Of a DNA stretch of 59,501 nt, positions 21,187 through 55,896 are shown one piece after another. Origin of the DNA: Candidatus Thorarchaeota archaeon (GTDB lineage Archaea; Asgardarchaeota; Lokiarchaeia; Sigyniarchaeales; SOKP01). Where the stretch lies: assembly GCA_048883045.1 (NCBI GenBank), contig JBHLRA010000003.1:1-59501 (forward strand). Direction: 5' to 3'. The position numbers and the translations under genes were made by a program. The notes beneath the pieces are model-generated. The model saw nothing but the letters and a program-made list of their open reading frames with translations. It was not told where the DNA came from and made no database searches. Every line of letters begins with the position of its first letter. Position 1 is the first letter of the stretch.

Positions 21187-21339
21187 TTATCTGCCCTTCA
21201 AAACATTTTGTAGATAATTTAATTCTAATTTACTTAATTCTCTATGATAAGTCAGACAATACAAACAATCTTTGCAAAATAATAATCTAATATTTTCTAT
21301 AGTAACTTCTATACAATTAGTATGTCTACATTTATCCAT
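21187..21339 (-). CDS. Small Cys-rich protein (not in ORF track)
   Basis: 50-aa ORF MDKCRHTNCIEV...FCKDCLYCLTYH.... Its ATG overlaps the upstream stop as TAATG. Confidence 0.4.
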   Translation of the reverse strand: MDKCRHTNCIEVTIENIRLLFCKDCLYCLTYHRELSKLELNYLQNVLKGR

Positions 21340-22556
21340 TATATTAATCCCGGTAATATTTTGTCATACCAATCTTCTATTGACAGTTTTTGTTCAGCTA
21401 CTATTTTGAGTCTATGCGCTATACATTCTTTATTTGTTTTTATATCATCCAACATTCCTTTTAATACTTCCCATTTATCACCCACTTCTGCACGATATTT
21501 TATATATTTCTCTGCTATTTCTGGACCACCAAACATATAAGTAGCAAGTATTCTATTTCTTGCCATGTCGTCATAATACCAATTATAACCCCGGGAAATA
21601 TATTTATTGGCATAATGATAGCATGGTTCTCCAGGATAAATCCATTTATTTTTCCCAAGAATAGCTAAAGTAAAATTTATGAAATGCTCACCTCCACCAT
21701 AGACACCTAATTCTTTGGGCCAACCTCCCAATAAGTCGTACAATCCCCTCTCCATAAACATGAAGCAGGTTGACATGCATGGCACTTTATATGGTTGACT
21801 AAAGCTTTTTCTGTATTTTGTAAATGAGTAGTGATATTCTCCAGCATCTCTGGCGTTAATTTCATTCCAGGGAAGGACACAGTTTTTCCGTCGGTTGTAA
21901 TCTTGCACGTCTTTTTCATTCATGCCTCCTTTGAATTTATATATTAATTCCCCACCTTGCCGTTCGCACATATAAGCTATTGGGATATGTAAAGTGCCAT
22001 TGAGTCTTTTATAACTATCAGCGTAATAAAAGAAAGCTTTTCGGATACTACTTTGACTAGGGATTATATGTGCATCACAAAAGAAAAGAATATCACCTGT
22101 GGAAGCTGCAACACCTGCATTTTTGGCTTGCCAGTGAGAAAGTTTTTTATCATAAGTTATATATTTTAGCCATGGCCTACAACCCCCTGCAAGCTCTTTC
22201 ATGCGGGGTGTGCCTGGATCTTGTGTACGATGAATATCATAGCCTTTATCTAATAAATCTTTAATATTAACCAATGCCTCTTTATATGGAACCTGTAATT
22301 CAGGATATAGAGATAATGCATTTTGCACACGTTGTCCAAAATTATTGATAAAATCTTCAATTAGAATTGCATTCGGATATTTTTCCCCCCGTTTTACTGT
22401 TTGTTGTGCTGCTTCTTCACACCAGTTATCAATAAGTATAATTTCAAAATCATGCCCAACATGTACAACTGATCTAAGCTCATTCCACAAAGCTTGTACT
22501 GTGAATTCAATTTGAGGATATTCTATGCAATATGGGATTATGACAGAGAGTTTCAT
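21339..22556 (-). CDS. GT-A fold (family 2-like) glycosyltransferase with DxH motif
   Basis: 405 aa. N-terminal KLSVIIPYC...EIILIDNWC. LFFCDAH (DxH). Confidence 0.7.
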   Translation of the reverse strand: MKLSVIIPYCIEYPQIEFTVQALWNELRSVVHVGHDFEIILIDNWCEEAAQQTVKRGEKYPNAILIEDFINNFGQRVQNALSLYPELQVPYKEALVNIKDLLDKGYDIHRTQDPGTPRMKELAGGCRPWLKYITYDKKLSHWQAKNAGVAASTGDILFFCDAHIIPSQSSIRKAFFYYADSYKRLNGTLHIPIAYMCERQGGELIYKFKGGMNEKDVQDYNRRKNCVLPWNEINARDAGEYHYSFTKYRKSFSQPYKVPCMSTCFMFMERGLYDLLGGWPKELGVYGGGEHFINFTLAILGKNKWIYPGEPCYHYANKYISRGYNWYYDDMARNRILATYMFGGPEIAEKYIKYRAEVGDKWEVLKGMLDDIKTNKECIAHRLKIVAEQKLSIEDWYDKILPGLI

Positions 22557-22684: not shown

Positions 22685-23458
22685 TTATTTATTCCCTTTC
22701 ACTTTTATATATTCTGTAAACCAAGCCTTACTTCCCTTTTTCCTGTATCCGTTTTTAATCATCCATGGCCGGCCAATATCTCTCACTATAGGACCTTTAC
22801 CTCTCATACCCCATACACCATATCTATTAAGGTCTTGAAATAAATGTTTAAATTTTTGGTTTTTGCCTTTGATTTGTTTCTCTGGATTACGATTAGGATT
22901 AAGCTGGGGTGCAATTTCATTAATAAAAGATTGTCTAATAAGAGATGGATGGCCAGTAAAACCCAATAAGCCTCGTTCATTTGGTGGTATTTCATAAAAT
23001 ATACCATTCCAGGGTATATATTTATTCCAATTTTTTGTCCAATAAGTACCCCCCTTGAAAGCATTAAGGCGTAATATTTGCAAAGTTGGGAATTTTTGCA
23101 TAATTCTAATAAGATTGAGCAAATCTACAGATTGTAATAATTCCCAATCATCCTCAAGATGGAAAGTGAAATCAGCAGGAGTAGCATTACAACACCATGT
23201 ACGCCAAAAAGCTTTTCCAAAATGTGCTTTAATCGGTTCATGAATACCTATATCACTTTTTGGAAACATTTTTCTAAATATATATCTGGTTTCTTCTTTT
23301 GTGCCCTCTCCAATTGGATCTAAATTAATATATATACCAATTTTTAATCTTGGATCTTTTTCCATTGCTGGATAAAACATCTTCTCACAAAAGCTTTTTA
23401 ATACTCTTTCATGTAATTCTGGCCGTCGTATTGCTGTCATTGTTATATTAATGATCAT
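22685..23458 (-). CDS. Putative GT-A-like glycosyltransferase
   Basis: 257 aa. HLEDDWELL acidic motif. Located inside the glycosyltransferase cluster. The call is weak. Confidence 0.35.
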   Translation of the reverse strand: MIINITMTAIRRPELHERVLKSFCEKMFYPAMEKDPRLKIGIYINLDPIGEGTKEETRYIFRKMFPKSDIGIHEPIKAHFGKAFWRTWCCNATPADFTFHLEDDWELLQSVDLLNLIRIMQKFPTLQILRLNAFKGGTYWTKNWNKYIPWNGIFYEIPPNERGLLGFTGHPSLIRQSFINEIAPQLNPNRNPEKQIKGKNQKFKHLFQDLNRYGVWGMRGKGPIVRDIGRPWMIKNGYRKKGSKAWFTEYIKVKGNK

Positions 23459-23637
23459 AATATTTCCCTTAATTTTGATTCAGATGTTGTTAAAAATGAA
23501 TATAATAATTTATTTTCATGCCATAATTCTACTACCATATCAGATAATCTATTATCAATTATTCGTATATTAAATTCATTCTTTTTTAAGTTTATATTTT
23601 TTATATACGAGTTATGACATTTTAATTTTATTTCCAC
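23455..23637 (-). CDS. Hypothetical small protein (GTG start)
   Basis: 60-aa ORF. The start codon is GTG. Confidence 0.35.
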   Translation of the reverse strand: MEIKLKCHNSYIKNINLKKNEFNIRIIDNRLSDMVVELWHENKLLYSFLTTSESKLREIL

Positions 23638-24278
23638 TTTTCTAACCTTTCAAAATACATAAGATTTTGATAATATGCTTTGATGCCTTTTTTATTTCGC
23701 CATTTTTGCCATTTAAATTGTAATAAAGTTTCTACAGGTCTTATTTGTTGTAAAGTATTATCTACATATTCATCGATCAAAATGTCTGGTCTTATATAAT
23801 TTTTATCTTTAAATTTTTGTTCCCAATATTCTTTTGGTTGACAATTATGATGATGTATTCCACCTTGTCCCGGACCTGCTGCTGAAAATAAAATCCTATC
23901 TGATAATGAATATAAATTATCTAAGAAAATATTTGTGTATTCTGGCTCTATGTGTTCAGCAACTTCAAAGCAAATAGCAAGATCAAATTTTCTGAAAGTA
24001 AACGGATGTTCTATTTTATCTTTTCGTAAATCATATATCCAAATCCTATCAAAATTTTCTACATCAGATAATGCATTAACCGTGCCCTCAATACCAAATG
24101 TTTGTATATTTCTATTAATAAATCCTTTAACAAGATCCCCATTACCACAGCCTATATCAATTACACTTTTAGGTTTTAAAACATCAATTATAGCATCACA
24201 AACAATAGGTATCCGCCAAGCTAAAGATTTACGCCTAGTAAAGAATTTTTTTGAATAAGCTTTGTCTAGATTATACAT
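23628..24278 (-). CDS. Class I SAM-dependent methyltransferase
   Basis: VIDIGCGNGDL (motif I) and CFEVAEHIEP. The track start at 24296 is GTG. ATG 24278 overlaps the stop of micro-ORF 24278..24340 as TAATG. Confidence 0.7.
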   Translation of the reverse strand: MYNLDKAYSKKFFTRRKSLAWRIPIVCDAIIDVLKPKSVIDIGCGNGDLVKGFINRNIQTFGIEGTVNALSDVENFDRIWIYDLRKDKIEHPFTFRKFDLAICFEVAEHIEPEYTNIFLDNLYSLSDRILFSAAGPGQGGIHHHNCQPKEYWEQKFKDKNYIRPDILIDEYVDNTLQQIRPVETLLQFKWQKWRNKKGIKAYYQNLMYFERLEKWK

Positions 24279-24340
24279 TATGCTATTAAGCTCCACATAA
24301 ATAATATACCTAATATAAACCCAAATATAAAAAGCATCAT
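24278..24340 (-). CDS. Hydrophobic micro-ORF (20 aa)
   Basis: MMLFIFGFILGILFMWSLIA. ATGA overlap with the upstream GT stop and TAATG overlap with the downstream ATG. Confidence 0.3.
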   Translation of the reverse strand: MMLFIFGFILGILFMWSLIA

Positions 24341-25509
24341 TTTAATTTCCCCAAATTTTCCAATACTGTTTTAAAATCACCAGATTGAACATTCTTTATA
24401 GCATTAATCAAACTTGCCATTCTTGGCAATGCAACCTCCCACAAACCATTTACAGAATGATACCATTTGACTAATTCTGATCTATATATATTAAAAGACA
24501 TCCAATTTGTCGGTATCTTTGCCCAAGCCCTCTCAATTGCCTTTTCCCAATCCAGAATATAATGACTATTACATATAGTTACAAATTCATTTTCCTGCAT
24601 CCATGGACTATATCTTTTAGGATCTTTTATCATTATAGGAATACCACATGATAAAGCTTCTAATACACTTCGGTCATTTTGCCCCCCAGGGCCAGCATGA
24701 ATTAGAAGCTTGGAGTTGTTCATAAGTTTAGCAAGACAAGATCTTTTTTGCGCCCCAGGTTTATATAACCAGATCGGCCAGGATTTATTTATTAGATCAT
24801 TTGTTTTGGCCCGGATCATTCCTCCTGGCATTATGTAATGAAGATCTTTGAATTTTTTGTCTTTTGCGGCTAAGGCATTGCAAGCTTGAAGTGCCAAGAA
24901 TTGACCTTTTTTGGTATGAATGTGGGAGGCACCCAACATAATGTCATATTTGTGTTGCGCGGGTATTATTGGCTTGAAGATATATTCATTTACAGGTTTG
25001 CGATAAGGAAAAACTAATCTTTCTTTTTTATTTTTTATATTAAAATAAAAATCTGTCCAGGTATCTTTTTCTTCAGGAATTAAATCATTTAATATAATAT
25101 CCCAATATGGCCAATGACCATGATTTGTATTTGCACGGTAATATAACTTCCAATATTCCTTTTTATCTAATTTATTCAAAAATGGAAGCCATGATCTAAA
25201 TCCACCTCTAAAAAATAATACATCTCTTTTTGTGGCTACATTATTAAAGCATTCTATTGTTGGAACGCAATATATTGTACTCGTCGTCGTAGGCCTTAAA
25301 GTTCCATTTCCCCTTTTTGAATCTATAATATGATATACATGATCAACAGTACCAGTTACAGCTAATAAATCCAACAATGCAAATACACCATCGGATTGAA
25401 GATTAATAGCAAATTTATTGGTTGCAGGCTGTTCTAATTCAGATAAAGAAATAGAGCGGTTGCAGGGTTGATCACTCACATAGAAAAAGATTAGATTCAT
25501 TATATCCAT
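24337..25509 (-). CDS. GT-B fold glycosyltransferase-like protein
   Basis: 390 aa. C-terminal HAGPGGQNDRSVLEALSCGIPIM resembles the GT-B nucleotide-sugar-binding segment. An alternative in-frame ATG at 25500 overlaps the upstream stop. Confidence 0.5.
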   Translation of the reverse strand: MDIMNLIFFYVSDQPCNRSISLSELEQPATNKFAINLQSDGVFALLDLLAVTGTVDHVYHIIDSKRGNGTLRPTTTSTIYCVPTIECFNNVATKRDVLFFRGGFRSWLPFLNKLDKKEYWKLYYRANTNHGHWPYWDIILNDLIPEEKDTWTDFYFNIKNKKERLVFPYRKPVNEYIFKPIIPAQHKYDIMLGASHIHTKKGQFLALQACNALAAKDKKFKDLHYIMPGGMIRAKTNDLINKSWPIWLYKPGAQKRSCLAKLMNNSKLLIHAGPGGQNDRSVLEALSCGIPIMIKDPKRYSPWMQENEFVTICNSHYILDWEKAIERAWAKIPTNWMSFNIYRSELVKWYHSVNGLWEVALPRMASLINAIKNVQSGDFKTVLENLGKLK

Positions 25510-26876
25510 CCTCTACTCGCAGCCATTATTGGAGCATAGTAATACTTATACAATGCATCTAAATTATAACTTTTTATGAAGTGATTTTTTGATCTCAAAG
25601 CTTTGTTCAAATCAAATTCATGTAAAATAACCTTAGCTATTTCTTTCAAATAAGCTGGCAAATCAGGAGCATTAAAAGTCACTTCATGGCTTCCCATGGC
25701 AAAGAATAAAGCATTAAAATCTGTTATTTCTTTCATAACATCAAGAGATTTATTGAGGACCAATAAATTACCAAATAAAGCAGCTTCCGCAATTGCAAGC
25801 CCAAATGTCTCTTCTTTTGTGAGACTAATATAAATATTTGTATAGTGGAGCAGATCAAATATTAAATCATGACTTATTCCAACCTCACATTTACCTTTAT
25901 CAAAATCACTTGTAAAGAATAAATCTTTATTTGGTATAAGTCCCAGATCAATAGCTGCTTTTTTATAGCGGTCAACTTTATCACGATATTTATCAACATT
26001 ACACCATTGATTCGCAATTATCAAACAAACTTCCCGCCCTAAGCGTTTCATCTCTGCAAAGATATGGATATTTTCTAAAACTCTTTTGGACTCAAATCTA
26101 TCTACTGCAGCCATATATAATTGCTTGATATCTGCTGTCAATAGCCCTGGACACCAATCCAAAAACTTTAATGTTTGATCTGAATTTAACTGCCCAAATG
26201 TCCGGAAATCTTTAGGGTGGGGTATTACCAGTACATCTTTTTTCCATCCTTTGAATTGTTCCGCGCAACGTAAAGAATCCGACTCGTTCGGATATACAAG
26301 TTTATGCTGGCCCCCATATAAAGCAATATTCCAATAGTCGCGACCATTTGGGCCAACATTGGGAACACTATGAATCCAGTGCATAAAACGGGTATCAGGT
26401 AACTCTTTTGAAGCTTCAGCACAGGCTAGGCCGTATGGTAGATTCCAGCCCTGAAAAATCCAGTCATGAGTAAAAGCCAACTTGATCTCAAGTCGTCTAA
26501 ATTCTTTCCGAAGCATTTGGGCAGTATTATTTTTTAATAATAATAATTCTGGTATCTTTTTTGCTTCTGTGGGGTCTGCTGGGATAGTTACTGTTTGACC
26601 ATTGTTTGTTTTGAAACTAAAACCTTCTTTAAGTTTCCGGGCATAGTCTAAACTGAATTGCTGTAACGATTGAAAATCGAATAAATGCCCCTTGGGAACT
26701 TTCTTTTCAAGAATCACACCTTCAGGTAATGGTTCTGTATCTTCGTATGTTTCTAACACATATAGATGGACCTCATGCCCGTTTTTTATCAGCATTGTTG
26801 CTTGGTCTTTTGCAATACCTACCAGGGAATAACCGCGTCTAAAATCACCGAAGTTTGTTAAGATAGCGACTTTCAA
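25500..26876 (-). CDS. GT4-like (GT-B) glycosyltransferase
   Basis: 458 aa. N-terminal (TTG)KVAILTNFG...GHEVHLYV. EETFGLAIAEAALFG (E-x7-E motif). Confidence 0.75.
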   Translation of the reverse strand: MKVAILTNFGDFRRGYSLVGIAKDQATMLIKNGHEVHLYVLETYEDTEPLPEGVILEKKVPKGHLFDFQSLQQFSLDYARKLKEGFSFKTNNGQTVTIPADPTEAKKIPELLLLKNNTAQMLRKEFRRLEIKLAFTHDWIFQGWNLPYGLACAEASKELPDTRFMHWIHSVPNVGPNGRDYWNIALYGGQHKLVYPNESDSLRCAEQFKGWKKDVLVIPHPKDFRTFGQLNSDQTLKFLDWCPGLLTADIKQLYMAAVDRFESKRVLENIHIFAEMKRLGREVCLIIANQWCNVDKYRDKVDRYKKAAIDLGLIPNKDLFFTSDFDKGKCEVGISHDLIFDLLHYTNIYISLTKEETFGLAIAEAALFGNLLVLNKSLDVMKEITDFNALFFAMGSHEVTFNAPDLPAYLKEIAKVILHEFDLNKALRSKNHFIKSYNLDALYKYYYAPIMAASRGWI

Positions 26877-29133: not shown

Positions 29134-29436
29134 ATATAAAATCACCTCCTTTATTATTTATTTTTAGTCTGGGCATTACCGAAATTTATTATTTGTTCTA
29201 TATCCTAGCAATGCCCAGACTTTTGTAATACATTCTTTAACCTAACTTACTTTAACCTAAAAATAATAATACTCTTTGCTGATAATAATAATTTCATTTC
29301 AGCATCATTACCATATATGCAACACCTGTGCCAAACCATTAACTAATTGAAAAATAAAACAATCATTTTATAAACATTACCAATTTATCTATTTATTTGT
29401 TCAAATATTAATCAACCATGCTCAAAAAAGGGAGGC

Positions 29437-29469
29437 GGGAGAAGCTTTGATATTATCTCTGCTTCTCCC
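29437..29469 (-). terminator. Candidate stem-loop/terminator after gene 29516..30376
   Basis: 9-bp stem GGGAGAAGC / GCTTCTCCC with a 15-nt loop. The T6 run on the minus strand begins 7 nt after the stem, which is non-ideal spacing. Confidence 0.3.
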
Positions 29470-29515
29470 TGGCATCATAGGATATATGATGTTTCTCTAT
29501 ATATTAACCCAACAC

Positions 29516-30376
29516 CTATGGTCCAGGTGGGGGAGGGGTTGTACTAGTTGTGGTATTAGATGTGGTGCTAGTACAAGTGCTGGAAAGTGTTGATGTTGTT
29601 GAAGTTTCCGTGCTTGTCGTGGTAGATTCCGACGAAATTGTCGAGGTCGAGGATTCTGTTGAAGAACAGGAACTTGTACTTGATTCGGTTGACTGGGAAC
29701 TTGTCGACGAAATTGTCGAAGAACAGGAACTTGTACTGGAAATCGTTGAAATCGTTGAACTACAGGAACTTGTAGAACTCTGAGTGGAAAGTGTAGATGT
29801 TGAGGATTCAGTAGAACTACAACTTGATGTCGACGAAATTGTCGAAGTTGATGATTCAGTACTTGAACAACTCGAAGTTGTTGAAATTGTTGAACTACAA
29901 GAACTTGTAGTTGATTCTGTACTCGCTGTGGAACAAGAACTTGAACAAGAACTTGAACATGTTGATGTACAAGTACTTGAGCTTGTAGTACTTAGTGTAC
30001 TCGCTGTACTTAGTGTACTTATTGTAGAACAAGAACTTGAACAACTTGAGCTACAAGAACTTGTACAAGATGAGGTAGAGCATGTTGAGGTACAACTTGA
30101 GGTACAACTTGTGGTGCAAGTCGTTGAACATGTTGTAGTACAAGTACTTGTACAAGAACTTGTGCAGCTTGAAGTCGAACAGGTGCTTGTCGTTGTGCTG
30201 GTACATGTACTGGTCGATGTAGTCGTCGTCGTAGTAGAAAACCCAAATAATTCATATACTTGCTCTAATGTAGCTTGCTTTGTAGTTCCTGTATGATTTT
30301 GGTGAACTATTATTCTATCTTGCCAACGCGCTTTATCAACAATTGGATATGCGTTAAAATCACTCATTTTGGGCAT
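29516..30376 (-). CDS. Ser/Thr/Cys-tract protein (45-aa N-terminal domain plus 240-aa low-complexity tract ending PPPPGP); candidate fibre
   Basis: 286-aa ORF. AGGGAGG SD. The tract is almost entirely S, T and C. Confidence 0.7.
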   Translation of the reverse strand: MPKMSDFNAYPIVDKARWQDRIIVHQNHTGTTKQATLEQVYELFGFSTTTTTTSTSTCTSTTTSTCSTSSCTSSCTSTCTTTCSTTCTTSCTSSCTSTCSTSSCTSSCSSSCSSSCSTISTLSTASTLSTTSSSTCTSTCSSSCSSSCSTASTESTTSSCSSTISTTSSCSSTESSTSTISSTSSCSSTESSTSTLSTQSSTSSCSSTISTISSTSSCSSTISSTSSQSTESSTSSCSSTESSTSTISSESTTTSTETSTTSTLSSTCTSTTSNTTTSTTPPPPGP

Positions 30377-30393
30377 ATATTAACCTCCCTTCT

Positions 30394-32013
30394 TTAAAAA
30401 ATATAAGTTAAACCTTCCCATCGTGTAGGATATTCATTTATAGGTAAAGTAAAATTATGTCTCCAGAGTTGAGTAGATGATATACCAGCATGTTTTCTTA
30501 TATTAGCTCTTTGATATGTATCATCCCAATGTAATGATAATAAATTTCCATCCGGATCAATACCAAGACCCCTTGCGCTAAAATCATTTATATCTTCAAT
30601 CCATTCTGTGACTATTGAAGTTAAATTCATACCATTACATTGTCTAATTCTGGATTGAAATAATACCGCCCCCCCAGGGCCTGATTGTGTAATACCATCT
30701 AAATAACATATAATTAAATCCCCATTCCAAATTGTACAACCATTTATATATGATATTGATGTACCAACACTGGGAAGATATGAACGTGATTTTTCTGAGT
30801 TAGTAAACCCATTTAATACCTGAAGATATGCTTGTAAGGATACAGTATCATAACCAACTGTAAAAACATCACCATCGGGGGTAACATCAACACCACGCAT
30901 ATATTGAGAGAATCCAGAAAGATCAATTTCACTACGAGTTGTATTTCCATCTACATCTCTAAACCATATTCTATTACCTGTAGTATTTATTAATATTTCT
31001 TTTGTATCATGCCACCAACCTAAGCCATAAGGATCTCTCCAAGTATTAATAGTTTTTATTAATTCATGACCAGGATATCCACAAATATAAATTGTATTTG
31101 TTGTGCCTGTGCCTTGGCGTTGAGCTATGGCATAATAACTATAATTACAAGCTTTTGGATTAGTTTCAAAACCAATAATGCGGGGGTTTGTATGGTCCTG
31201 AGATATAAATTCAACAACAACACGATCATCTACTTTAAAGACCAAACCATCACAATCCATGTAAACTATAGGCACATCTGTTAAAGTATTAGTAACATTT
31301 ACATCAAGTTGCTGTACCGTACTTGTAGCAGCATCCAAAGTTATATTTGCTGTATCTTGTGTTGGTTTGGCTGTGATTATTCCAACCCGATAAGTAGGTT
31401 TCCATTTTTGCCAACCCGGAAACATGGCGTAATTGTAATAAACTCCTGGAGCTGTTGAACTTACTACTTGTTGTAATTGTCCATCACGGGAAGCAGAATA
31501 AATTGCAGCTCCATCATATCCAGGCCTAACTTGTACATCATTTGTTCGTTCATTCGGGATTTCTATTGTTCCAACATTGCCGGTTAAATCTTCAGTCAAA
31601 TCAGCACACCAGGCTTGCACTGTCGGTTCAGGATTTTCAGCTAATTTATTCTCTATGTATTCTTTACGTTTTTGTAATGATTTTTGTCTTAATTGTGCTC
31701 CCCACCAGGTACGGTCATATTCAACATATAAACGATATTTAGAATTTGTATCTGCCACGGCCGCTGCTACTTGTTCTTTTGTTGCTGTACCAGATATGTA
31801 ATGATTTATTATTATATTCATTTTGGATTTAGCACTATCATACATTGCCCAGGCTGTACCACGACTTGCATGTAATTCTATGATAGTTGTATTGAGCTGT
31901 AATATTGATGCATCTAAATTTATTATTGATTGTTGGGCTCTGGAATCGTCAATATCTAATATAATATTATATTGACCATCTGCTATATGATTTACTATAG
32001 TTCCTTTGCCCAT
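30394..32013 (-). CDS. Tail tip/baseplate-associated protein (unknown family)
   Basis: 539 aa. Position downstream of the tape measure and distal tail genes. The C-terminal half is beta-propeller-like by composition. Confidence 0.55.
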   Translation of the reverse strand: MGKGTIVNHIADGQYNIILDIDDSRAQQSIINLDASILQLNTTIIELHASRGTAWAMYDSAKSKMNIIINHYISGTATKEQVAAAVADTNSKYRLYVEYDRTWWGAQLRQKSLQKRKEYIENKLAENPEPTVQAWCADLTEDLTGNVGTIEIPNERTNDVQVRPGYDGAAIYSASRDGQLQQVVSSTAPGVYYNYAMFPGWQKWKPTYRVGIITAKPTQDTANITLDAATSTVQQLDVNVTNTLTDVPIVYMDCDGLVFKVDDRVVVEFISQDHTNPRIIGFETNPKACNYSYYAIAQRQGTGTTNTIYICGYPGHELIKTINTWRDPYGLGWWHDTKEILINTTGNRIWFRDVDGNTTRSEIDLSGFSQYMRGVDVTPDGDVFTVGYDTVSLQAYLQVLNGFTNSEKSRSYLPSVGTSISYINGCTIWNGDLIICYLDGITQSGPGGAVLFQSRIRQCNGMNLTSIVTEWIEDINDFSARGLGIDPDGNLLSLHWDDTYQRANIRKHAGISSTQLWRHNFTLPINEYPTRWEGLTYIF

Positions 32014-32529: not shown

Positions 32530-34026
32530 TTATGACCAATCAATATATAAAGCTGCTTTGTAACTTGCTCCCCGATCTATATTAGAGAAACTTCTAAATG
32601 CCCCTGTTGATGATCCATTTTCCATGACTAATATTTGAATATCATTTCCAGATGCCCAACCCCCACGATTAACAATTTCCTGTATAATAGTTTTAATATC
32701 CGGAGAATCATATGCAGTATCTAAAGTCCAGGCCCCCTCATTATTCCAATTAACACTTGCTGTTGTTAAATTCATTGCCACAACATCTGCACAACTTGTT
32801 GGTGTTGTAGCTGTGTCTTCGTCTTCACCTTTCATTAACCATGCAATGCTGGTTCCTGAATCTGAATCTCCGGCTGTTATTGTTATTTTAGCTGAATCAA
32901 TCGTGGCAGAATTGGGAATATTTATATTTTCAAATTTACATCCCCACGACCAAATCCAATCTCCTGCACCATCACGTCCTATATCATCAATAGAATCTGT
33001 ATTATTAAATGTAACTTCAGTAGAATTAAATACCCAATCATCATTACTGGAATCTGGGTAAAATGTACCTTCTGTTGGTGGGGGAGGTGTACTGGAAGTT
33101 GTTGAATTTGTTGATAAAGTGCTGGCTGAAGATGCCGTGGAACTCTGGGTTGATGTCGACGATTCTGTCGAAATTGTGCTGGAGCAAGTGGAAGTTTGAG
33201 TCGTGGAAGACTGGCTGGAAACCGTTGATTCCGTGGAGGTACAAGAACTAGTGCTGGTACAAGTGCTTGAATTTGTTGATTGTGTACTGATTGTAGATTC
33301 CGATGATTTTGTCGAGGACTGGCTGGAGGTCGACGAAATTGTCGAACAACTAGAACTACAACTGGAAGTAATTCGGGTGGTGCTGGTGCTTGTAGATGAC
33401 TGGCTGGAAATAGTTGATGCTGTAGTGGTTTCAGTGGTACTACTCGTAGATGTACAACTGGTGCTGGATTCCGATGACTGGCTGGAACCTGTTGATATTG
33501 TTGAGCTACAGGTTGACGTACAAGATGTAGTATGTGTTGTGGTGCAGGTACTAGATATAGTGGTGTGACTGGAAGTGCTTGTGCAGCTTGAGGTTAGTGT
33601 TGTCGAGCAAGAACTTGAACAGGAACTTGTACAAGTGCTAGTCGTAGTGGTTGTTGTAGTTGTGGGTACAACCCAATCTGACAGAGAAGATTCAACCATA
33701 AAAGTAATCGTAACTAAACCATGTTCGTTTCTTAACTGACTTAAATTTCCTTGATATGCACCATCCGGGGTCGTAAGCGTCAATACATAATAATTTTTAT
33801 GTAGAGTATAAAGAGTATTATATTGTTCTTGTGTCACATTAGCCTGGAACGTAAATGTACGATCTCCATGTGACCATCCATTGTCCCGGATGTTTATACC
33901 TGTATCAAGTGTTGCCGTTTTGTTGACTCGTCTTGATAAGTCTTGATAGTTGGAACCTGACTCCAACACATCTAAGTTTATATAATCATCCAGGGAAAAA
34001 GTTTGCGCTGATATTGATATTTTCAT
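32530..34026 (-). CDS. Distal-tail-position protein with internal 197-aa Ser/Thr/Cys tract and C-terminal beta-sandwich-like domain
   Basis: 498 aa. Its start overlaps the tape-measure stop. The tract is aa 121..317 (33076..33666) and ends TPPPP. Confidence 0.65.
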   Translation of the reverse strand: MKISISAQTFSLDDYINLDVLESGSNYQDLSRRVNKTATLDTGINIRDNGWSHGDRTFTFQANVTQEQYNTLYTLHKNYYVLTLTTPDGAYQGNLSQLRNEHGLVTITFMVESSLSDWVVPTTTTTTTTSTCTSSCSSSCSTTLTSSCTSTSSHTTISSTCTTTHTTSCTSTCSSTISTGSSQSSESSTSCTSTSSTTETTTASTISSQSSTSTSTTRITSSCSSSCSTISSTSSQSSTKSSESTISTQSTNSSTCTSTSSCTSTESTVSSQSSTTQTSTCSSTISTESSTSTQSSTASSASTLSTNSTTSSTPPPPTEGTFYPDSSNDDWVFNSTEVTFNNTDSIDDIGRDGAGDWIWSWGCKFENINIPNSATIDSAKITITAGDSDSGTSIAWLMKGEDEDTATTPTSCADVVAMNLTTASVNWNNEGAWTLDTAYDSPDIKTIIQEIVNRGGWASGNDIQILVMENGSSTGAFRSFSNIDRGASYKAALYIDWS

Positions 34027-40284: not shown

Positions 40285-40285
40285 A

Positions 40286-41908: not shown

Positions 41909-42313
41909 TTATTTTTTCTTCTTTGCTGGAGGTTCTTGTTCGTCATTATTTTCTGGTAATAATGTAAATGCTGTCAAAATTGTATCTATTATTGCTAATT
42001 TTGTAGCTTTATCGGTATTAGGATTTTTTAATTTATTCAGATCACCTACTGAAACACCTGTAAGATTATGATTATATTTTGGCATATTATTAATTTTATA
42101 CCAAATTAAATCTTCTGAATTTAACCAATAACGACCACCATTTTCAAATTTTCTATCCGGCCATTTTTCATTGAATATGGATTTAATTTCAGCTTTTGTA
42201 ACATTAGGGATATCAAATATTTCAAAATTGGCATAACCTGCCCCAGTTAATTCAACATCATCATCATGAATCTCTGTTATATTATAATTAGTGTCTAAGA
42301 CTGCCCTAGCCAT
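41909..42313 (-). CDS. Hypothetical protein, paralogue of 39769..40284
   Basis: 134 aa. IHDDDVELTGAGYANFEI motif. Confidence 0.55.
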   Translation of the reverse strand: MARAVLDTNYNITEIHDDDVELTGAGYANFEIFDIPNVTKAEIKSIFNEKWPDRKFENGGRYWLNSEDLIWYKINNMPKYNHNLTGVSVGDLNKLKNPNTDKATKLAIIDTILTAFTLLPENNDEQEPPAKKKK

Positions 42314-44744
42314 TATCAGCTCCTATTGACCAACCTGGCCCTGTAGTGGTTGTCGTGGTTGAGGTTGAAGTGCAAGATGTTGTTGTCGATGCCGTTTCTT
42401 CTGGAGAAGATGCCGTGGAACTGCAACTAGAACTACAAGTTGAGGTTTGGGTTGACGTGGAAGTTGTTGAAATTGTTGATAATGTAGACTCTGATGATTC
42501 TGTGGAGCTACAAGTTGATGTCTGGCTGGAAATCGTTGATTGACTTGACTCTGTAGATGCACTGCTAAAACTACTTGAGCAACTTGTACTTTCAGTCGTT
42601 GAAGTTTCAGTTGTCTGTGTAGTTTGAGTACTTGTACAAGATGTGGTATGTGTTGTTGATTCGGTACTATATGTTGATTCCGTTGATTCAGAAGTTTCAG
42701 ATGTTACACTGGTGCAACTCGACGAGCTGGTCGAGGTATGGGAAGTTTTTGTCGTTTCCGTAGAGGTACAGGTTGAGGTCTGGGTTGTCTGGCTACTGGT
42801 AGAGCTGGTACATGTGGTGGAATGGGTAGTAGGTTCTTGATATTCAGTTACAGATGATGTGCTACAACTGCTTGAAGTACAAGAGGTTTCAGTTGATTCG
42901 CTGGAAATTGTTGATTCCGTTGATGTTTCTGACGTGCTACAAGATGTAGTAGAAGTATGTGTTGAGGTACAAGATGTAGTATATGAGCTACAAGTACTTG
43001 TTTTTGTTGAAGTAGATGTAGATTCAGTACTTGAACTCGACGAAATTGTCGAAGTTGAAGATTGTGTACTTGCTGTAGATTCAGTCTGGCCAGTAGTGCT
43101 GCAAGTGCTTGATTCTGTTGATGTTGATGTAGAAATAGTGGATTCTGAACTCTGGGAACTTGTTGAAGTTTGAGTTGTCTGAGTAGAAGTACAAGATGTT
43201 GTGGATGTGCAAGTAGATGAACCACTAGATATGGTAGTTTCCGTCGTTTCCGTTGATGTGCTTGAGGTTTGGGTGCTTGAAGTCTGTGTGGTGGAAGTTT
43301 CCGTAGTTCCTGATGTCTGGCTGGAACTGCTTGAGCTAAACGTAGTTTCAGACGTAACACTGGAAACTGTTGATGTACTTGAAGTTTGAGACGTTTGTGA
43401 ACTTTGGGATGTAGAACTTTGTGTGGTGGAAGTTTCTGTTGTCTGAGAGGTTTCGGTCGAGGTGGAAGATGTTTCTGTGGTTCCTGTAGAAATTGTTGAT
43501 CCTGTTGAACTTTGAGTCGATACACTAGATATTGTGGTTTCTGTACTGGTAGAGCTACAAGATGTGGTGTGGCTGGAAATACTTGATGTAGAAGAAGTTT
43601 GGGTAGTTTCCGTGGAACTGCTTGAGCTGAGCGTGGTTACAGAAGTTGAGCTACAAGTGCTTGAAATTGTTGACTCTGTAGATGTGCTACAAGATGTAGT
43701 GGTTTCTGTTGAGCTGGTACTAGATATTGTGGATTGACTTGAAACTGTTGATTCTGTTGATGTACAGCTTGAAGTACTTGTCCCACTTAAAGTTTGAGTT
43801 GATGAACTACAAGTAGTTGAAATTGTTGATTTTGTTGAACTTGTAGTAGATTGGCTTGAAACAGTTGATTGACTTGTAGTTTCAGATGTGGTGCAAGATG
43901 TAGAAGTACAAGTTGTTGATTCTGTTGAAATTGTAGATTCTGTCGTTTGTGTAGTTGTAGAAGTTTGAGTCGTAGTAGAAGTTGTCGTCGTGGCATTATA
44001 TTCTAATACCTCAACCATATAAAAATCTGCATTATCATGGACTACAACTTGCTGTATCTCATAAGTTGCTCCATGAGTTATTATTCTATCACGTTTCTTA
44101 GGGTCACGGCTTAGACTTGCAATATCAGATTTTAGTAATTCTATTCCAATTAATTCTGTAACAGCAAAATTGCCACCATAACCAGGCTGGTTTGTTGATT
44201 CCTTTATATAATCAATTCCAGTTAAAGTTATATTCGCCTCACCAGTAATTGGAACATAAATTGCTGTATCACCAAATTCAAATAAATCCAAAGCCGCAGA
44301 ATGAATTATATCATCTAATGTTTGTTCAAGTGTTGGATTTGAAGCTGTTCCAGATATCATTACAGCCACAGTATAAAAATCATTATCACTTGCAATTATT
44401 TGTTTTATTGTATATATGGTTTCGTCGGTTTGAATCTGGTCAAATTCTACTGGATCGCGGCCAAGACTAGAAATATCTGATTTCAAGAATTCGATAGAAA
44501 TATATTGTGCTACTGTATAATTTGAGCTGTAACCTGGTTGTTCAGTTAAATTATCAGTAATATCAATACCCGTTAATAAGATTGATGAACCGCCGCCATA
44601 AGGTACATAGACGGCGGCATCACCAAAATTAAAAAGCTGGCTGGCGGATGCAGTTATACTACTGCTTATCGTCATGAATAATACGCCCAAGATGATCACG
44701 GATAGTATTACCCGTGTTATCAAGGATTTTTCTTTTATCCGCAT
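42306..44744 (-). CDS. Signal-peptide protein with duplicated N-terminal domain and about 550-aa Ser/Thr/Cys tract
   Basis: 812 aa. N-terminal hydrophobic segment. Two ~95-aa repeats (FGDAAVYVP... / FGDTAIYVP...). The tract is aa 251..801 (42342..43994). Confidence 0.7.
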   Translation of the reverse strand: MRIKEKSLITRVILSVIILGVLFMTISSSITASASQLFNFGDAAVYVPYGGGSSILLTGIDITDNLTEQPGYSSNYTVAQYISIEFLKSDISSLGRDPVEFDQIQTDETIYTIKQIIASDNDFYTVAVMISGTASNPTLEQTLDDIIHSAALDLFEFGDTAIYVPITGEANITLTGIDYIKESTNQPGYGGNFAVTELIGIELLKSDIASLSRDPKKRDRIITHGATYEIQQVVVHDNADFYMVEVLEYNATTTTSTTTQTSTTTQTTESTISTESTTCTSTSCTTSETTSQSTVSSQSTTSSTKSTISTTCSSSTQTLSGTSTSSCTSTESTVSSQSTISSTSSTETTTSCSTSTESTISSTCSSTSVTTLSSSSSTETTQTSSTSSISSHTTSCSSTSTETTISSVSTQSSTGSTISTGTTETSSTSTETSQTTETSTTQSSTSQSSQTSQTSSTSTVSSVTSETTFSSSSSSQTSGTTETSTTQTSSTQTSSTSTETTETTISSGSSTCTSTTSCTSTQTTQTSTSSQSSESTISTSTSTESSTCSTTGQTESTASTQSSTSTISSSSSTESTSTSTKTSTCSSYTTSCTSTHTSTTSCSTSETSTESTISSESTETSCTSSSCSTSSVTEYQEPTTHSTTCTSSTSSQTTQTSTCTSTETTKTSHTSTSSSSCTSVTSETSESTESTYSTESTTHTTSCTSTQTTQTTETSTTESTSCSSSFSSASTESSQSTISSQTSTCSSTESSESTLSTISTTSTSTQTSTCSSSCSSTASSPEETASTTTSCTSTSTTTTTTGPGWSIGADNG

Positions 44745-54393: not shown

Positions 54394-54555
54394 TTATAAA
54401 GAAATATATTCTTTTATTTGATCTTCGGTATATCCTAGATCTGTCAATAATTTTTTAAATACAATTATGCAATCTGTTAATTCCGTTGGCCATTTATCAT
54501 TTTCAGTTACTTCTATTATATTACCTCCAATTGAACCTAATGTTATCTTAATCAT
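54394..54555 (-). CDS. Hypothetical small protein (not in ORF track)
   Basis: 53-aa ORF MIKITLGSIGGNIIEVTEND.... ATGA overlap with the upstream stop. Confidence 0.4.
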   Translation of the reverse strand: MIKITLGSIGGNIIEVTENDKWPTELTDCIIVFKKLLTDLGYTEDQIKEYISL

Positions 54556-55070
54556 AATTTATATTCTCCTATTCCTATAGTATCACACCAAGGCTTGATG
54601 CCATTATTATATATCTCTAAAGGTTTTATATTCACCCAGGAAAACAAAGTCTTCATTCCGTCTGGCAATATACGCCAATAATCAGGTTTATGGTGTTCCG
54701 GCCCTGTGCCTGGAGCTATGAGACATATTAAACATCCTTTTGGATCTGCTACAGATATAAGTGATTGCATGAACATGAAATGATTGTCAACATGTTCAAG
54801 AGTCTGGCCAGAGATAATGATATTGAATTTCATTATAAGTTGAGATCCTAGATAATCTTTTGGGCTAACTATTATATCAACATTCGGGCCATCAACAATA
54901 TCAACTCCAAGATAACTACAAGAGAATTCAGTATGCTTCTGTAATAGATTATTATAGGTCTTGTGGCCATGAACAGAAAGCGAACCTATATCAAGTATAT
55001 TATAAAATTTATTCTTTATTGGATATTTAGTAAAAAAATTATCCATTTCTTTTAAGCTGCTTTTATGCAT
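54552..55070 (-). CDS. Class I SAM-dependent methyltransferase
   Basis: 172 aa. ILDIGS (motif I-like). IIISGQTLEHV. Confidence 0.6.
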   Translation of the reverse strand: MHKSSLKEMDNFFTKYPIKNKFYNILDIGSLSVHGHKTYNNLLQKHTEFSCSYLGVDIVDGPNVDIIVSPKDYLGSQLIMKFNIIISGQTLEHVDNHFMFMQSLISVADPKGCLICLIAPGTGPEHHKPDYWRILPDGMKTLFSWVNIKPLEIYNNGIKPWCDTIGIGEYKL

Positions 55071-55753: not shown

Positions 55754-55896
55754 TCACCATTCCATAATTTCTCAATAGCATTCTTAAAACCATTATTAGC
55801 AACACATACTCCAAATTCAACTGCACCTAAAGGAATCCATATTGGCGAGCCTATTATAATAACCAAACTTATTAAGATATATTTTATTACTTTCAT
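55750..55896 (-). CDS. Small membrane protein (48 aa)
   Basis: Start moved to ATG 55896 (MKVIKYILISLVIIIGSPIWIPLGAV), which overlaps the upstream stop as TAATG. Confidence 0.45.
   Translation of the reverse strand: MKVIKYILISLVIIIGSPIWIPLGAVEFGVCVANNGFKNAIEKLWNGE

Follow-up and report, generated by a model that had tools for sequence, protein, structure and literature searches.

A putative phage tail filament with a conserved head, a patterned Ser/Thr/Cys tract and a syntenic glycosyltransferase cassette

The stretch of DNA analysed here (59,501 nucleotides; the window) contains an open reading frame for 286 amino acids of which all except a short N-terminal head is dominated by Ser, Thr and Cys. 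Such a composition raises the questions whether the frame is a gene, what its product is and how its side chains may be used. The window probably represents a lambda-like siphovirus from an anoxic-sediment metagenome, and the product of this gene is probably a filament at the tail end. A preliminary description gave no strand for the gene, which is encoded on the minus strand. Its parts and signals are the following:

29516..30376, minus: gene of the Ser/Thr/Cys filament protein, 286 aa, with an ATG start (ORF listing)
30239..30376, minus: head, a putative anchor domain, codons 1-46 (MPKMSD...YELFGF), with low pN relative to pS and kept in distant relatives
29537..30238, minus: Ser/Thr/Cys tract, codons 47-280, delimited by composition, residue spacing and Tandem Repeats Finder
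29516..29536, minus: C-terminal PPPPGP and stop codon, part of the conserved end motif ...STCTSTTSNTTTSTTPPPPGP
30384..30392, minus: ribosome-binding site GAAGGGAGG, read from the sequence, with the same motif in relatives
29424..29469, minus: terminator-like hairpin GGGAGAAGC / GCUUCUCCC, then a U6 run (predicted fold)
Loci L005, L007/L008 and L010/L011: homologues of the filament gene (frame comparison)

Composition and reading frame of the filament gene

The tract (234 aa) consists to 88% of Ser, Thr and Cys. Together with the C-terminal tail (240 aa) it contains 43.8% Ser, 33.8% Thr and 10.4% Cys, compared to 8.9%, 8.8% and 1.7% in the 18 largest ORFs of the window, pooled as a baseline. 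The sequence and the PPPPGP end are as described before, but the tract is not pure, since about 12% of the residues of tract and tail are Ile, Glu, Pro, Leu, Ala, Gln, Asn or Gly, with Pro confined to the terminal PPPPGP. The sporadic other residues had been placed in the later part of the tract, and they occur only beyond approximately its first 70 residues. The head comprises 46 aa up to ...YELFGF instead of the 45 aa counted earlier, and the N-terminus (MPKMSDFNAYP...) has no hydrophobic leader.

The gene caller used for the public contig chose two antisense ORFs rich in Val, Glu, Leu, Asp and Gln (29550-29783 and 29784-30296, plus strand), and it took shifted or antisense frames in L005, L010 and L013. 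This would fit a chance frame in low-complexity DNA or real antisense genes; moreover, the wobble positions of both frames coincide, and third-position variation alone cannot separate sense from antisense. Against this, the head is contiguous with the tract and, judged from substitution patterns, under purifying selection, with a pN of 0.04-0.20 against a pS of 0.31-0.80 and a dN/dS of 0.05-0.18 in the five pairs with finite dS. The filament frame is open from end to end in four homologues (241, 242, 286 and 321 aa) and is the only frame open throughout in all of them, while the antisense frame is broken by 2-8 stops. The motif GAAGGGAGG lies 7 nt 5' of the ATG and is kept in all relatives, including L005, L007 and L010, in agreement with the strong Shine-Dalgarno sequence noted before. 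All remaining genes of the window are on the minus strand, and Ser in the tract uses all six codons (TCN and AGY) with genome-like preferences. We conclude that the filament ORF is a genuine gene whose head is conserved; the opposite reading is effectively refuted by head selection, the conserved ribosome-binding site, antisense stops, strand and codon use, and we leave it next to no probability.

Ser and Thr together make up 77% of the tract, which is fast-evolving in sequence and variable in length (195-275 aa among relatives, with indels of whole units). Its synonymous sites are saturated (pS 0.5-0.8), and its composition is nonetheless retained. Compared to another sequencing run the tract differs by indels that are multiples of three, including in-frame deletions of 18 nt, and the length polymorphism that had been suggested as a check was found both here and among the relatives. 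The composition and spacing of the tract are under selection.

A downstream domain reached by read-through or frameshift was considered and rejected, as no minus-strand ORF of at least 40 aa is present at 29040-29516 and the stop codon is followed by the terminator-like element, a 9-bp G+C-rich hairpin with a loop of more than 8 nt and the U6 run.

The filament protein was absent from the protein databases searched, an exact-sequence look-up of the window protein was empty, and none of five family members (0/5) was present in a collection of 15 billion proteins. The family is missing from these databases because its genes are mis-called as antisense or shifted frames. This systematic mis-calling stands regardless of glycosylation, and viromes probably contain more low-complexity structural genes of this kind than are counted.

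Tail-end family and patterning of the tract

The filament gene lies at the distal end of the tail module, past the genes for the tape measure and the tip. Tape measure (PF10145), 498-aa protein, 170-aa protein, 539-aa protein and filament gene follow one another in this order, and then come the hairpin and U6 run, so that the gene closes the tail block as the preliminary description had it. The synteny holds in L005, L007, L010, L013, L018 and L019. Three further virion or tail proteins are relevant here:

32530..34026, minus: 498-aa protein directly after the tape measure (translation and tract scan)
30394..32013, minus: 539-aa tail protein immediately upstream of the filament gene (homologues, structure model)
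42306..44744, minus: 812-aa protein with two tandem head-tail attachment domains (PF05354) and a tract (domain and tract scans)

The earlier proposal of a short N-terminal anchor carrying a filament gains weight from two observations. The head is the only part conserved at the sequence level, where it is under purifying selection, and it is common to much longer tail-end proteins of other phages. It is kept in distant proteins of L013/L014, L018 and L019, which have 669-1047 aa, contain Ser/Thr tracts as well as globular domains and share the end motif, and the head alignments A1 and A3 have a mean column identity of 80% and 72%. The end motif ...STCTSTTSNTTTSTTPPPPGP is kept in L005, L007 and L010 and reads ...TTCTTTSTPP[GP] in L013, L018 and L019; the post-tape-measure protein of L013 closes with it as well. 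By sequence comparison, phage tail-end proteins that share this head form a wider family, built of head, Ser/Thr stalks and a conserved ...TTSTPP end, with distal parts from 195 to ~1000 aa. The longer members carry one or two globular domains of ~180 aa, which are found only in L013, L018 and L019 and in none of the window's clade. The window copy, which is without a distal receptor-binding domain, is the minimal, Cys-rich form of the family. This wider family was absent from the preliminary description.

Searches with the head gave no candidates in a word-index homology search, only junk repeat proteins in an exhaustive phmmer search against 1.84 billion representatives, nothing significant for a head profile against PDB sequences and no detectable relative in Pfam or PHROGs. 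GenBank phages yielded no match by megablast and tblastn; a scan of reference genomes for the head yielded nothing and one of metagenomes the L019 contig alone, again. No Pfam family matched the globular domains found in L013 and L018 or the C-terminal domain of the 498-aa protein, and in raw reads from two runs of the same study the phage was absent at the sampled depth.

The 539-aa neighbour has 362 homologues, which mainly share its N-terminal half. In the structure model this conserved part (~290 aa) consists of a hairpin, a long coiled coil and a beta domain, and fold matches identify the variable C-terminal part as a putative beta-propeller, for which fold searches returned generic beta-propellers only. 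In L002 the slot after the 539-aa homologue is occupied by a 680-aa ORF, which by its position and sequence would be a tail fibre.

The tract is not unique to the filament gene, a point that had been overlooked together with its regular patterning. We took as genes 55 ORFs of at least 100 aa (54 listed on the minus strand plus 36694-37158, also minus). A 20-aa window with at least 70% Ser, Thr and Cys occurs in 3/55, and all others peak at no more than 45%, including the major capsid protein (45168-46184) and the putative major tail protein (37226-38245) with peaks of 35-45%. The three tract-bearing genes all lie in the virion module. The 498-aa protein consists of an N-terminal domain, an internal Ser/Thr/Cys tract of ~200 aa (about 33040-33669) and a C-terminal globular domain; its tract spans ...P-T8 to ...STPPPP and is conserved in L005, L007 and L010, and the C-terminal domain recurs beside a Thr-rich tract in L023. 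In the 812-aa protein a tract of ~550 aa (about 42330-43994) is composed of Ser, Thr, Cys, Gln and Glu, and its L007 homologue closes in a tract of this kind. As an origin of the three tracts, recent duplication was rejected, since they share only patches of 20-54 nt.

The tract of the filament protein is quasi-periodic, with one non-Ser/Thr residue followed by two or three Ser/Thr. Its proximal third consists of C-x-x-x repeats. The remainder is made up of x-[ST]2-3 units and shows traces of a repeat of 16 aa; in agreement with this, Tandem Repeats Finder reports periods of 9, 12 and 48 nt in the tract DNA. A Cys-Cys spacing of 4 occurs 13 times compared to a shuffle maximum of 7. The dominant spacings of non-Ser/Thr residues are 3 and 4, never 2, and gaps of 2 or less number 0/47 (shuffle mean 17, minimum 8). 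Such gaps number 0-1 in the filament protein and three close homologues, and 7 and 12 in the two other tract proteins of the window, where ~23 and 61 are expected.

Since a spacing of 3 or 4 is so far above chance, the tract could be a folded periodic fibre, glycosylated or not, with every third or fourth residue in a multi-chain or solenoid core. The forms considered are a polyproline-II-type bundle and a disulfide-laddered beta-helix as in insect Thr/Cys antifreeze proteins, with the chains stapled by the proximal C-x-x-x block. The clustering of the Cys spacing of 4 beside the head in all four close homologues, and the preference of the variable positions in the units (Cys, Ile, Val, Gln, Glu, Leu or Ala) for Ile, Val, Leu, Gln, Glu and Cys, would fit this possibility. 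We nevertheless regard it as improbable, since tract length is free to vary by whole units, the tract has no Gly or Pro periodicity of the kind that known polyproline-II bundles need, and in distant relatives non-Ser/Thr residues make up only 9-14% of the tract and the patterning is weaker. Cys is likewise limited to 0-3% of the tracts in distant members, which makes high Cys a trait of the clade and not a requirement of the family.

The downstream cassette and modification of the tract

A five-gene cassette starts 2.6 kb downstream of the filament gene, and a second group of methyltransferase genes is located elsewhere in the window:

25500..26876, minus: GT4-like GT-B glycosyltransferase, 458 aa, first cassette gene (weak Pfam/PHROG matches, homologues, fold)
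24337..25509, minus: 390-aa protein, a weak second GT-B candidate (PF00534 E = 0.005, below the curated cut-off)
23628..24296, minus: SAM-dependent methyltransferase, 222 aa (several Pfam methyltransferase families, three above cut-offs; conserved in the cassette)
22685..23458, minus: conserved cassette protein of 257 aa, with homologues in all seven cassette-bearing loci
21339..22556, minus: GT2-family glycosyltransferase, 405 aa (PF00535 E = 8.5e-8, above cut-off; conserved in the cassette)
54552..56477, minus: second methyltransferase gene group (Pfam)
55052-55753, minus: member of the rhamnosyl O-methyltransferase/CmcI family (PF04989 E = 8e-30)
55896-56477, minus: Methyltransf_24 member (PF13578 E = 3e-11)
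54552-55070, minus: weak methyltransferase (Pfam)

The 458-aa protein has 336 homologues, many with PF00534 or PF13439 and named 'glycosyltransferase family 4'. As modelled (pLDDT 96), this first enzyme has a GT-B fold, with BshA, MshA, glycogen synthase and OtsA as top Foldseek matches. The 390-aa protein has weak NCBIfam glycosyltransferase matches and is conserved across the cassette; the gene at its position in L015 has an unmarked PF00534 match and 30% identity to the window protein by tblastn. No match was obtained for the 257-aa protein in Pfam, PHROG, NCBIfam or PDB. For the cassette proteins, sequence and profile searches against PDB were uninformative and only the fold search gave matches, and NCBIfam gave neither GtfA/GtfB or glycocin matches nor any other specific one.

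Cassette and filament gene are syntenic, a linkage missing from the preliminary description. In L010, L013/L014, L018 and L019 the filament gene carries a tract and the cassette follows it immediately on the 3' side. In L015 and L017, whose cassettes contain Methyltransf_24 genes, a gene with a tract is found no more than a few kb away, and the DNA of L016 starts with the cassette. The G+C content of these loci ranges from 33 to 53%. Of nine sampled lineages with a GT4 homologue, seven have Ser/Thr tracts of 38 aa or more in neighbouring tail-region genes, while in L021 and L022 (GT4 alone in L022) no tract was found up to 10 kb from the homologue. Three loci with the same tail module have neither tracts nor, in the DNA examined, a cassette, but L001 and L003 are weak controls because their DNA ends only ~2.7 kb past the start of the tail-protein match.

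On balance, we favour the reading that the filament protein is an O-glycosylated bottle-brush tail filament modified by the co-inherited cassette. We infer a protein present in the virion, in which the 46-aa head as the folded part probably docks on the tail tip or baseplate beside the 539-aa beta-propeller protein. The remaining 240 residues would form an extended, non-globular stalk capped by the conserved ...TTSTTPPPPGP. Most likely this stalk is O-glycosylated by the cassette enzymes in the host cytoplasm, before or during assembly, giving a mucin-like bottle brush; further sugar O-methyltransferase-like genes are present outside the cassette. The cassette would likewise modify the tract of the 812-aa protein and the linker of the 498-aa protein, resulting in a virion with glycan-coated filaments at several sites. 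Related phages attach one or two globular domains to this kind of stalk, while in the window protein the stalk itself would be the working part, either in reversible adhesion to host surface or matrix polymers or in shielding, with a conceivable role for the Cys residues.

The cassette travelling with Ser/Thr-tract tail genes in several lineages is circumstantial support for glycosylation. Against it, the glycosyltransferases of the cassette have no specific similarity to known protein O- or S-glycosyltransferases, L021 and L022 carry the GT4 homologue without a tract nearby, and the head has no detectable homologue of known structure or function. The absence of a distal domain from the stalk was also counted against it. 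Furthermore, the linkage of cassette and filament gene could reflect shared late expression and not a relation of enzyme and substrate.

A plainer explanation, possible if rather unlikely, takes the tract as an unglycosylated flexible spacer or entropic bristle, a hydrophilic linker similar to polyserine linkers, and assigns the cassette to another purpose, such as a change of host surface polysaccharide (superinfection exclusion, serotype conversion) or modification of phage DNA. A linker role between globular domains is clear for the tract of the 498-aa protein and for those of L013, L018 and L019. GT4 and GT2 enzymes act mostly on lipids, polysaccharides or small molecules, and the non-protein acceptors usual for these families agree with the top structural matches of the 458-aa protein; the missing protein-glycosyltransferase signature and the tract-free GT4 loci fit a spacer as well. 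However, the cassette keeps its place directly downstream of, or a few kb from, tract genes in loci of 33-53% G+C, and the strict spacing of non-Ser/Thr residues exceeds what a plain spacer needs. Pfam scans of the window ORFs revealed no membrane flippase, GtrA-like gene or DNA-hypermodification enzyme (e.g. hydroxymethylase) that would serve the alternative purposes. In addition, modification of virion proteins assembled in the cytoplasm would need just such cytoplasmic, nucleotide-sugar-dependent enzymes.

The preliminary description had raised thioether cross-linking and S-linked glycosylation, by a GT2 as in glycocins, as possible modifications of the tract. Such RiPP-like chemistry (lanthionine thioether, thiazole/oxazole) or GT2 S-glycosylation is suggested by a Ser/Thr/Cys composition and C-x-x-x spacing that recall lanthipeptide and azole-peptide cores, and the cassette indeed encodes a GT2. 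The required enzymes were not found in the ORFs scanned: Pfam scans covered 54/55 ORFs of at least 100 aa (39769-40383 with a shortened start; 15646-16446 and others gave no match), and among these nearly all minus-strand ORFs no LanB, LanC, LanM, LanKC, LanL, YcaO, dehydrogenase or radical-SAM family was matched. S-glycosylation likewise gained no specific support, since the similarity of the GT2 is limited to the generic GT2 nucleotide-binding region, and phmmer against PDB sequences gave chance-level matches only, with no glycocin-type enzyme among the 60 matches listed. As family members outside the clade are also almost free of Cys, we consider this chemistry very unlikely.

We return to the O-glycosylated filament, which may be part of a broader picture. 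There is an outside chance that sediment phages, widespread and missed by annotation, build a virion 'glycocalyx' of filaments at neck, baseplate and tail tip that are glycosylated and methylated by the cassette, with the Cys of the low-G+C clade S-glycosylated or cross-linked. If this were true, combined O- and S-linked glycans, or else a thiol-stapled glycoprotein shaft, would be described for a phage structural protein for the first time. Glycosylated tracts would carry protein glycosylation in phage virions well beyond the capsids and tail tubes of actinobacteriophages, to an uncultured environmental phage group and to another kind of virion architecture, in which dedicated mucin-like filaments occur at several sites. 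This would bear on phage adhesion to host envelopes, biofilm matrix and sediment particles, and a compact cytoplasmic glycosylation cassette with a simple repetitive acceptor could be useful for glyco-engineering.

Comparison with known systems

The stalks of the serine-rich repeat adhesins of Gram-positive bacteria are glycosylated in the cytoplasm and project a binding region from the surface. Like these adhesins (Fap1, GspB, SraP, with the O-GlcNAc transferases GtfA/GtfB), the phage encodes a long Ser-rich, presumably non-globular stalk together with a GT-B (GT4) enzyme and further glycosyltransferases. The adhesins follow a dipeptide (S-x) period, whereas the filament tract has a period of 3-4 residues, and they offer no counterpart to its Cys content. 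The cassette proteins scanned have no NCBIfam match to GtfA/GtfB, those of the 458- and 390-aa proteins being weak and unrelated and the GT-B fold of the 458-aa protein generic, and the filament has no signal peptide or LPXTG anchor and the Pfam scans no SecA2/SecY2.

With mucin/PTS domains and with the O-glycosylated Ser/Thr-rich linkers found in modular carbohydrate-active enzymes (polyserine and fungal cellulase linkers) the family shares low-complexity Ser/Thr sequence of variable length between globular, possibly lectin-like domains (L013, L018, L019 and the 498-aa protein), and a fast evolution of sequence at conserved composition. Unlike the proposal made here, these proteins are secreted, and their glycosylation takes place outside the cytoplasm or along the eukaryotic secretory pathway. 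Their Pro content is high, whereas the window tracts have Pro at their ends only, and they do not have the regular x-[ST]2-3 pattern with Cys of the filament tract.

Phage tail and decoration fibres (collagen-like, BclA-like) combine a conserved N-terminal adaptor with a variable distal part. The filament gene resembles them in its short conserved N-terminal segment for putative docking, its repetitive variable shaft, its position at the end of the tail module and its triplet-like periodicity, while it differs from collagen-like fibres in having no Gly-X-Y repeat and, in the window copy, no distal receptor-binding domain. In the beta-helical antifreeze proteins of the Tenebrio molitor type the repeat unit is 12 residues long, a Cys occupies every sixth position, and the disulfide ladder is defined. 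The filament, known here from its sequence, shares with them short repeats dominated by Thr, Ser and Cys and regularly spaced Cys; the biology is unrelated.

Virion glycosylation in mycobacteriophages is a further parallel. According to Freeman et al. (2023, Cell Host Microbe; as cited in PMC10877033 and PMC13313380), capsids and tail tubes are modified by phage glycosyltransferases, and the pairing of a glycosyltransferase with a methyltransferase is taken to indicate virion glycosylation. There the modification takes place in the cytoplasm of the infected cell, as proposed here. The window, which is known from its genes, similarly places phage glycosyltransferases and a methyltransferase beside presumed virion targets, and it encodes a GT2, a GT4-like GT-B enzyme, a SAM methyltransferase and a PF04989 member. 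The targets would differ: unlike the capsid and tail-tube subunits reported as targets in mycobacteriophages, the major capsid protein and putative major tail protein of the window have no Ser/Thr tract, and the candidate targets are instead tracts of ~200-550 aa in three accessory proteins.

A probable filament gene closing the tail module

The window, which derives from a sediment metagenome and has a G+C content of ∼33%, is a lambda-like siphovirus genome. Almost every ORF of ≥100 aa is on its minus strand, and each of the nine plus-strand entries in the ORF list lies within or overlaps a minus-strand ORF.

Virion genes of the window (strand given where noted)
51463-53340: gpA-type terminase
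48726-50207: lambda-family portal
47506-48723: S49 protease
46232-47170, minus: lambda D-like decoration protein, 312 aa
45168-46184: E-type major capsid protein
39164-39763 and 38262-38954: tail completion and tail terminator proteins
34026-36539: tape measure
32530-34026, minus: 498-aa protein
32017-32529: 170-aa protein
30394-32013, minus: 539-aa protein, directly upstream of the filament gene
29516-30376, minus: filament gene, 286 aa, ATG start

The decoration protein is much longer than the 116-position Pfam model, matches it in two stretches and contains Gly/Thr/Ala-rich segments. The 539-aa protein is modular. Its conserved 290-aa N-terminal part (a beta hairpin, two ∼50-residue helices and a beta domain) is common to at least 362 proteins, while the variable C-terminal part is modelled here as a beta-propeller with only moderate confidence; such a layout is typical of receptor-binding tail proteins.

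The preliminary description had reported the filament ORF as a 45-aa head with a 240-aa pure Ser/Thr/Cys tract. The ORF lies where it was placed, on the minus strand, and ordinary N-terminal sequence is indeed followed by an S/T/C tract. The head, however, has 46 residues (MPKMSD...YELFGF), and besides 43.8% Ser, 33.8% Thr and 10.4% Cys the tract holds 12% other residues (large window ORFs: 8.9% Ser, 8.8% Thr, 1.7% Cys). As described, other residues (I, E, P, L, A, Q, N, G) are sporadic and come late, after ∼70 residues of S/T/C only, the protein ends in PPPPGP, a strong SD (GAAGGGAGG) precedes the ATG by 7 nt, and the gene is the last of the tail block, after the tape measure, 498-aa, 170-aa and 539-aa genes. 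Just past its stop lie a G+C-rich hairpin of 9 bp and a U6 run. The anticipated variation in tract length was found among the relatives, with proteins of 242 aa (locus L005), 321 aa (L007/L008) and 241 aa (L010/L011). The observation is confirmed and exceeds chance; its interpretation as a mucin-like, possibly glycosylated or cross-linked filament is partly supported.

Elsewhere on the minus strand, 3156-5801 encodes an 881-aa family-A DNA polymerase that has a uracil-DNA-glycosylase-superfamily domain at its N-terminus as well as a 3'-5' exonuclease domain, a fusion also present in the unrelated GT4-bearing locus L021. A 258-aa protein (10070-10846) has weak sulfotransferase-domain matches (E ∼5e-4, below cut-offs). 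The region 12358-14773 encodes a PAPS-reductase/DUF3440 protein and, after it, one with a weak ParB-N match (E = 7e-4, below the Pfam cut-off); we take the two to resemble the IbrA/IbrB-type pair of some prophages.

Coding status of the filament frame

On a public contig with identical sequence, the gene caller picked two V/E/L/D/Q-rich antisense ORFs instead of the filament frame (170 aa and 77 aa; window 29550-30296, plus strand). Filament-type genes are also miscalled, in antisense or shifted frames, in L005, L010 and L013 (in L013 as a 391-aa antisense call), and L004 is likewise listed among loci with Ser/Thr-tract genes replaced in this way. We located relatives via homologues of the 539-aa neighbour. 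Each relative locus that extends far enough (L005, L007/L008, L010/L011) carries the gene at the corresponding position, with the same head, a Ser/Thr/Cys tract of differing length, a ...TTPPPP(GP) end and a conserved ribosome-binding site.

In all four versions the filament frame is the sole frame open throughout, and the in-register antisense frame contains 2-8 stops. The head has a pN of 0.04-0.20 versus a pS of 0.31-0.80, with dN/dS of 0.05-0.18 where dS could be estimated. Synonymous sites of the tract have reached saturation (pS 0.5-0.8) and its composition is kept, the figures being rough for such a low-complexity alignment. Ser is encoded by all six codons with the usual genome preferences, which rules out slippage of a single nucleotide repeat as an explanation. 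A variant contig from another run shows two in-frame 18-nt deletions relative to the window; the third-position bias of its differences is non-discriminating, because the wobble positions of the sense and called antisense frames coincide.

Judged by ribosome-binding-site conservation, the sole open frame, the antisense stops, head pN versus pS, Ser codon use and the in-frame deletions, the filament ORF is a genuine gene whose protein product is under selection. That it is not a gene is effectively ruled out by the frame open in 4/4 versions, the antisense stops and purifying selection on the head. Because gene callers substitute antisense or shifted ORFs, the family is missing from protein collections (none of five members was found in a collection of 15 billion proteins), and protein searches with the head therefore gave no genuine match.

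Tract patterning, wider family and other tract proteins

Non-Ser/Thr residues are never adjacent in the filament tract: 0 of 47 gaps are ≤2 (shuffles: mean 17, minimum 8) and 30 are exactly 3 or 4, a spacing shared by three close homologues. Cys-Cys spacing of exactly four occurs 13 times (shuffle maximum 7), mostly in the head-proximal block (CTSSCTSSCTSTCTTTC...), while a spacing of three prevails for the other variable residues (I, V, Q, E, L, A); farther along, a 16-aa unit (C-SST-x-SS-x-ST-x-SST-SS) is discernible. From these spacings the tract is read as units of one variable residue and two or three Ser/Thr. Such patterning could be an enzyme acceptor pattern, an extended amphipathic helix that turns once every three residues, or a means of avoiding aggregation. 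A folded periodic shaft is a rival but less likely reading of the tract.

By scanning contexts of glycosyltransferase homologues, followed by a DNA-level search with the head alignment, we found longer proteins with the same head in L013/L014 (807 aa), L018 (1047 aa) and L019 (669 aa), all from phages of 45-46% G+C. Their head consensus is MPKITQYD.V..LHW.DQLVV.Q.G.T.RCTIEQIYELMGH. The head is followed by a 340-450-aa Ser/Thr tract, one or two ∼180-aa globular domains, each succeeded by a further tract, and the end motif TTCTTTSTPP[GP]. The globular domain, bounded by YWCE... and ...CPDG(x)2-4W, always lies between Ser/Thr tracts and occurs in two kinds of protein.

Proteins with the ∼180-aa YWCE domain
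L013: 6748-9171, head-family protein; 461-3874, post-tape-measure protein
L018: about 10001-13144, head-family protein; 4115-7657, post-tape-measure protein
L019: 10001-12010, head-family protein; 4788-7736, post-tape-measure protein

It belongs to no Pfam family and gave only a very weak DUF1349 match (E = 0.026, below cut-off); we regard it as a candidate lectin-like module. A scan of reference genomes of cultured or binned species detected no member of the head family. Compared with the longer proteins, the window protein is a minimal, Cys-rich member with head, stalk and cap and without the distal domain. The longer tracts have A and L where the window clade has C, I, Q, E and V, and contain 0-3% Cys. 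This difference fits genome G+C in part (GCN codons versus TGT, ATT, CAA, GAA); the orderly placement of Cys speaks against drift alone.

RiPP-like or S-glycosyl chemistry on the tract is a further, unlikely rival. For S-glycosylation or cross-links count the six-fold Cys enrichment, the regular spacing and the clustering by the head in 4/4 close homologues. On the other hand, no lanthipeptide, YcaO or radical-SAM enzymes were found among the window ORFs scanned, no specific likeness of the window GT2 to glycocin enzymes was seen in NCBIfam or among the 60 PDB sequence matches listed, and the wider family manages with nearly no Cys, which counts against any specific Cys chemistry. As a plausible candidate role, the proximal Cys block may staple oligomer chains together after release.

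Positive GC skew at two further window sites pointed to other tract genes. The 498-aa protein has an N-terminal domain, ∼200 aa of S/T/C (6% Cys) framed by P-T8...STPPPP, and a globular C-terminal domain. A 39%-identical relative of the latter (aa 364-497; 32530-33039, minus) occurs in another phage lineage, L023 (2614-3693), where it adjoins a Thr-rich tract and lies upstream of a GT4 cassette. Between capsid and tail genes, an 812-aa protein carries two tandem head-tail attachment domains (PF05354) and then a ∼550-aa tract. With the annotated start (44670-44744, minus), this protein gains a hydrophobic N-terminal stretch of 24 residues (MRIKEKSLITRVILSVIILGVLFM); translation may instead begin at an internal Met (MTISSS...). 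In all remaining ORFs of ≥100 aa taken as genes, among them those of the major capsid and putative major tail proteins, S/T/C stays at or below 45% in every 20-aa window. The tracts are kept in L005, L007 and L010. Since DNA similarity among the window's three tracts is limited to 20-54-nt patches, they are not recent copies of one another.

The glycosyltransferase cassette and the probable nature of the filament protein

The filament terminator is followed by the gene of a secreted 300-aa protein, one or two small ORFs and five cassette genes.

Cassette and further methyltransferase genes (all minus strand)
54552-56477: three methyltransferase genes upstream of the terminase, one of the rhamnosyl-O-methyltransferase/CmcI family (PF04989, E = 8e-30)
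25500-26876: GT4-like GT-B enzyme, 458 aa (weak Pfam and PHROG matches; fold model)
24337-25509: 390-aa weak GT-B candidate (the L015 gene at this cassette position has a PF00534 match)
23628-24296: SAM methyltransferase (Pfam)
22685-23458: 257-aa protein, no match in Pfam, PHROG, NCBIfam or PDB
21339-22556: GT2 enzyme (Pfam)

Many of the 336 homologues of the 458-aa protein have PF00534 or PF13439 and are named family-4 glycosyltransferase; its model (alignment of 117 sequences, pLDDT 96) best matches the GT-B enzymes BshA, glycogen synthase, MshA and OtsA. The PF04989 gene suggests that any glycan made by the phage would contain a methylated deoxyhexose. The 300-aa ORF between terminator and cassette (28138-29040, minus; probable start at an internal MKRS) has a signal peptide, an N/Y/D/T-rich region and a weak WGxxGxxG-family match; kept in the close relatives L005, L007 and L010 only, it could be a moron or secreted factor. 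Directly after the cassette, and at the same position in L010, lies a sigma-70-like factor (20418-20987, minus) with weak region 2 and region 4 matches, both just under the Pfam cut-offs.

By tblastn, cassette homologues in conserved order were found in seven loci (L010, L013/L014, L015/L016, L017, L018, L019). All five genes were detected in L010, L013/L014, L015/L016 and L019; L017 lacks the methyltransferase, and the L018 DNA searched yielded no GT2 homologue. The cassette lies directly 3' of the filament gene in L010, L013/L014, L018 and L019, and a few kb from a different Ser/Thr-tract gene of the tail region in L015 and L017. In L023, a GT4-homologue context, the protein sharing the C-terminal domain of the 498-aa protein contains a 109-aa Thr-rich tract. 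L001-L003 share the tail module and showed neither tracts nor cassette matches in the DNA covered, of which just L002 reaches far enough downstream to serve as a control. The association of tract and cassette is strong, among lineages that are not independent. It is not absolute, because L021 has glycosyltransferases with no tract within 10 kb and the Mu-like phage L022 has a GT4 homologue alone, with no tract. L021 and L022 count in favour of the less likely rival in which the tract is an unmodified spacer and the cassette acts on another target.

The gene closes the tail module, and its conserved docking-type head precedes a distal part that varies; in longer relatives the stalk bears globular domains, and the tract recurs in a head-tail-attachment-domain protein and a post-tape-measure protein. 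All of this points to a virion appendage. The co-inherited enzymes, soluble glycosyltransferases of the nucleotide-sugar type and methyltransferases, are of the kinds that cytoplasmic glycosylation of the tract proteins would require. Mycobacteriophages are an established case of virion proteins glycosylated by phage-encoded enzymes, as cited in PMC10877033 and PMC13313380. We therefore lean slightly towards an O-glycosylated, mucin-like bottle-brush filament, which, like all biochemistry ascribed here to the protein, we infer. Neither the substrate architecture nor the protein family seems to have been described in the databases and literature searched; in kind, the filament gene is best placed with phage virion glycosylation involving mucin-like stalks.
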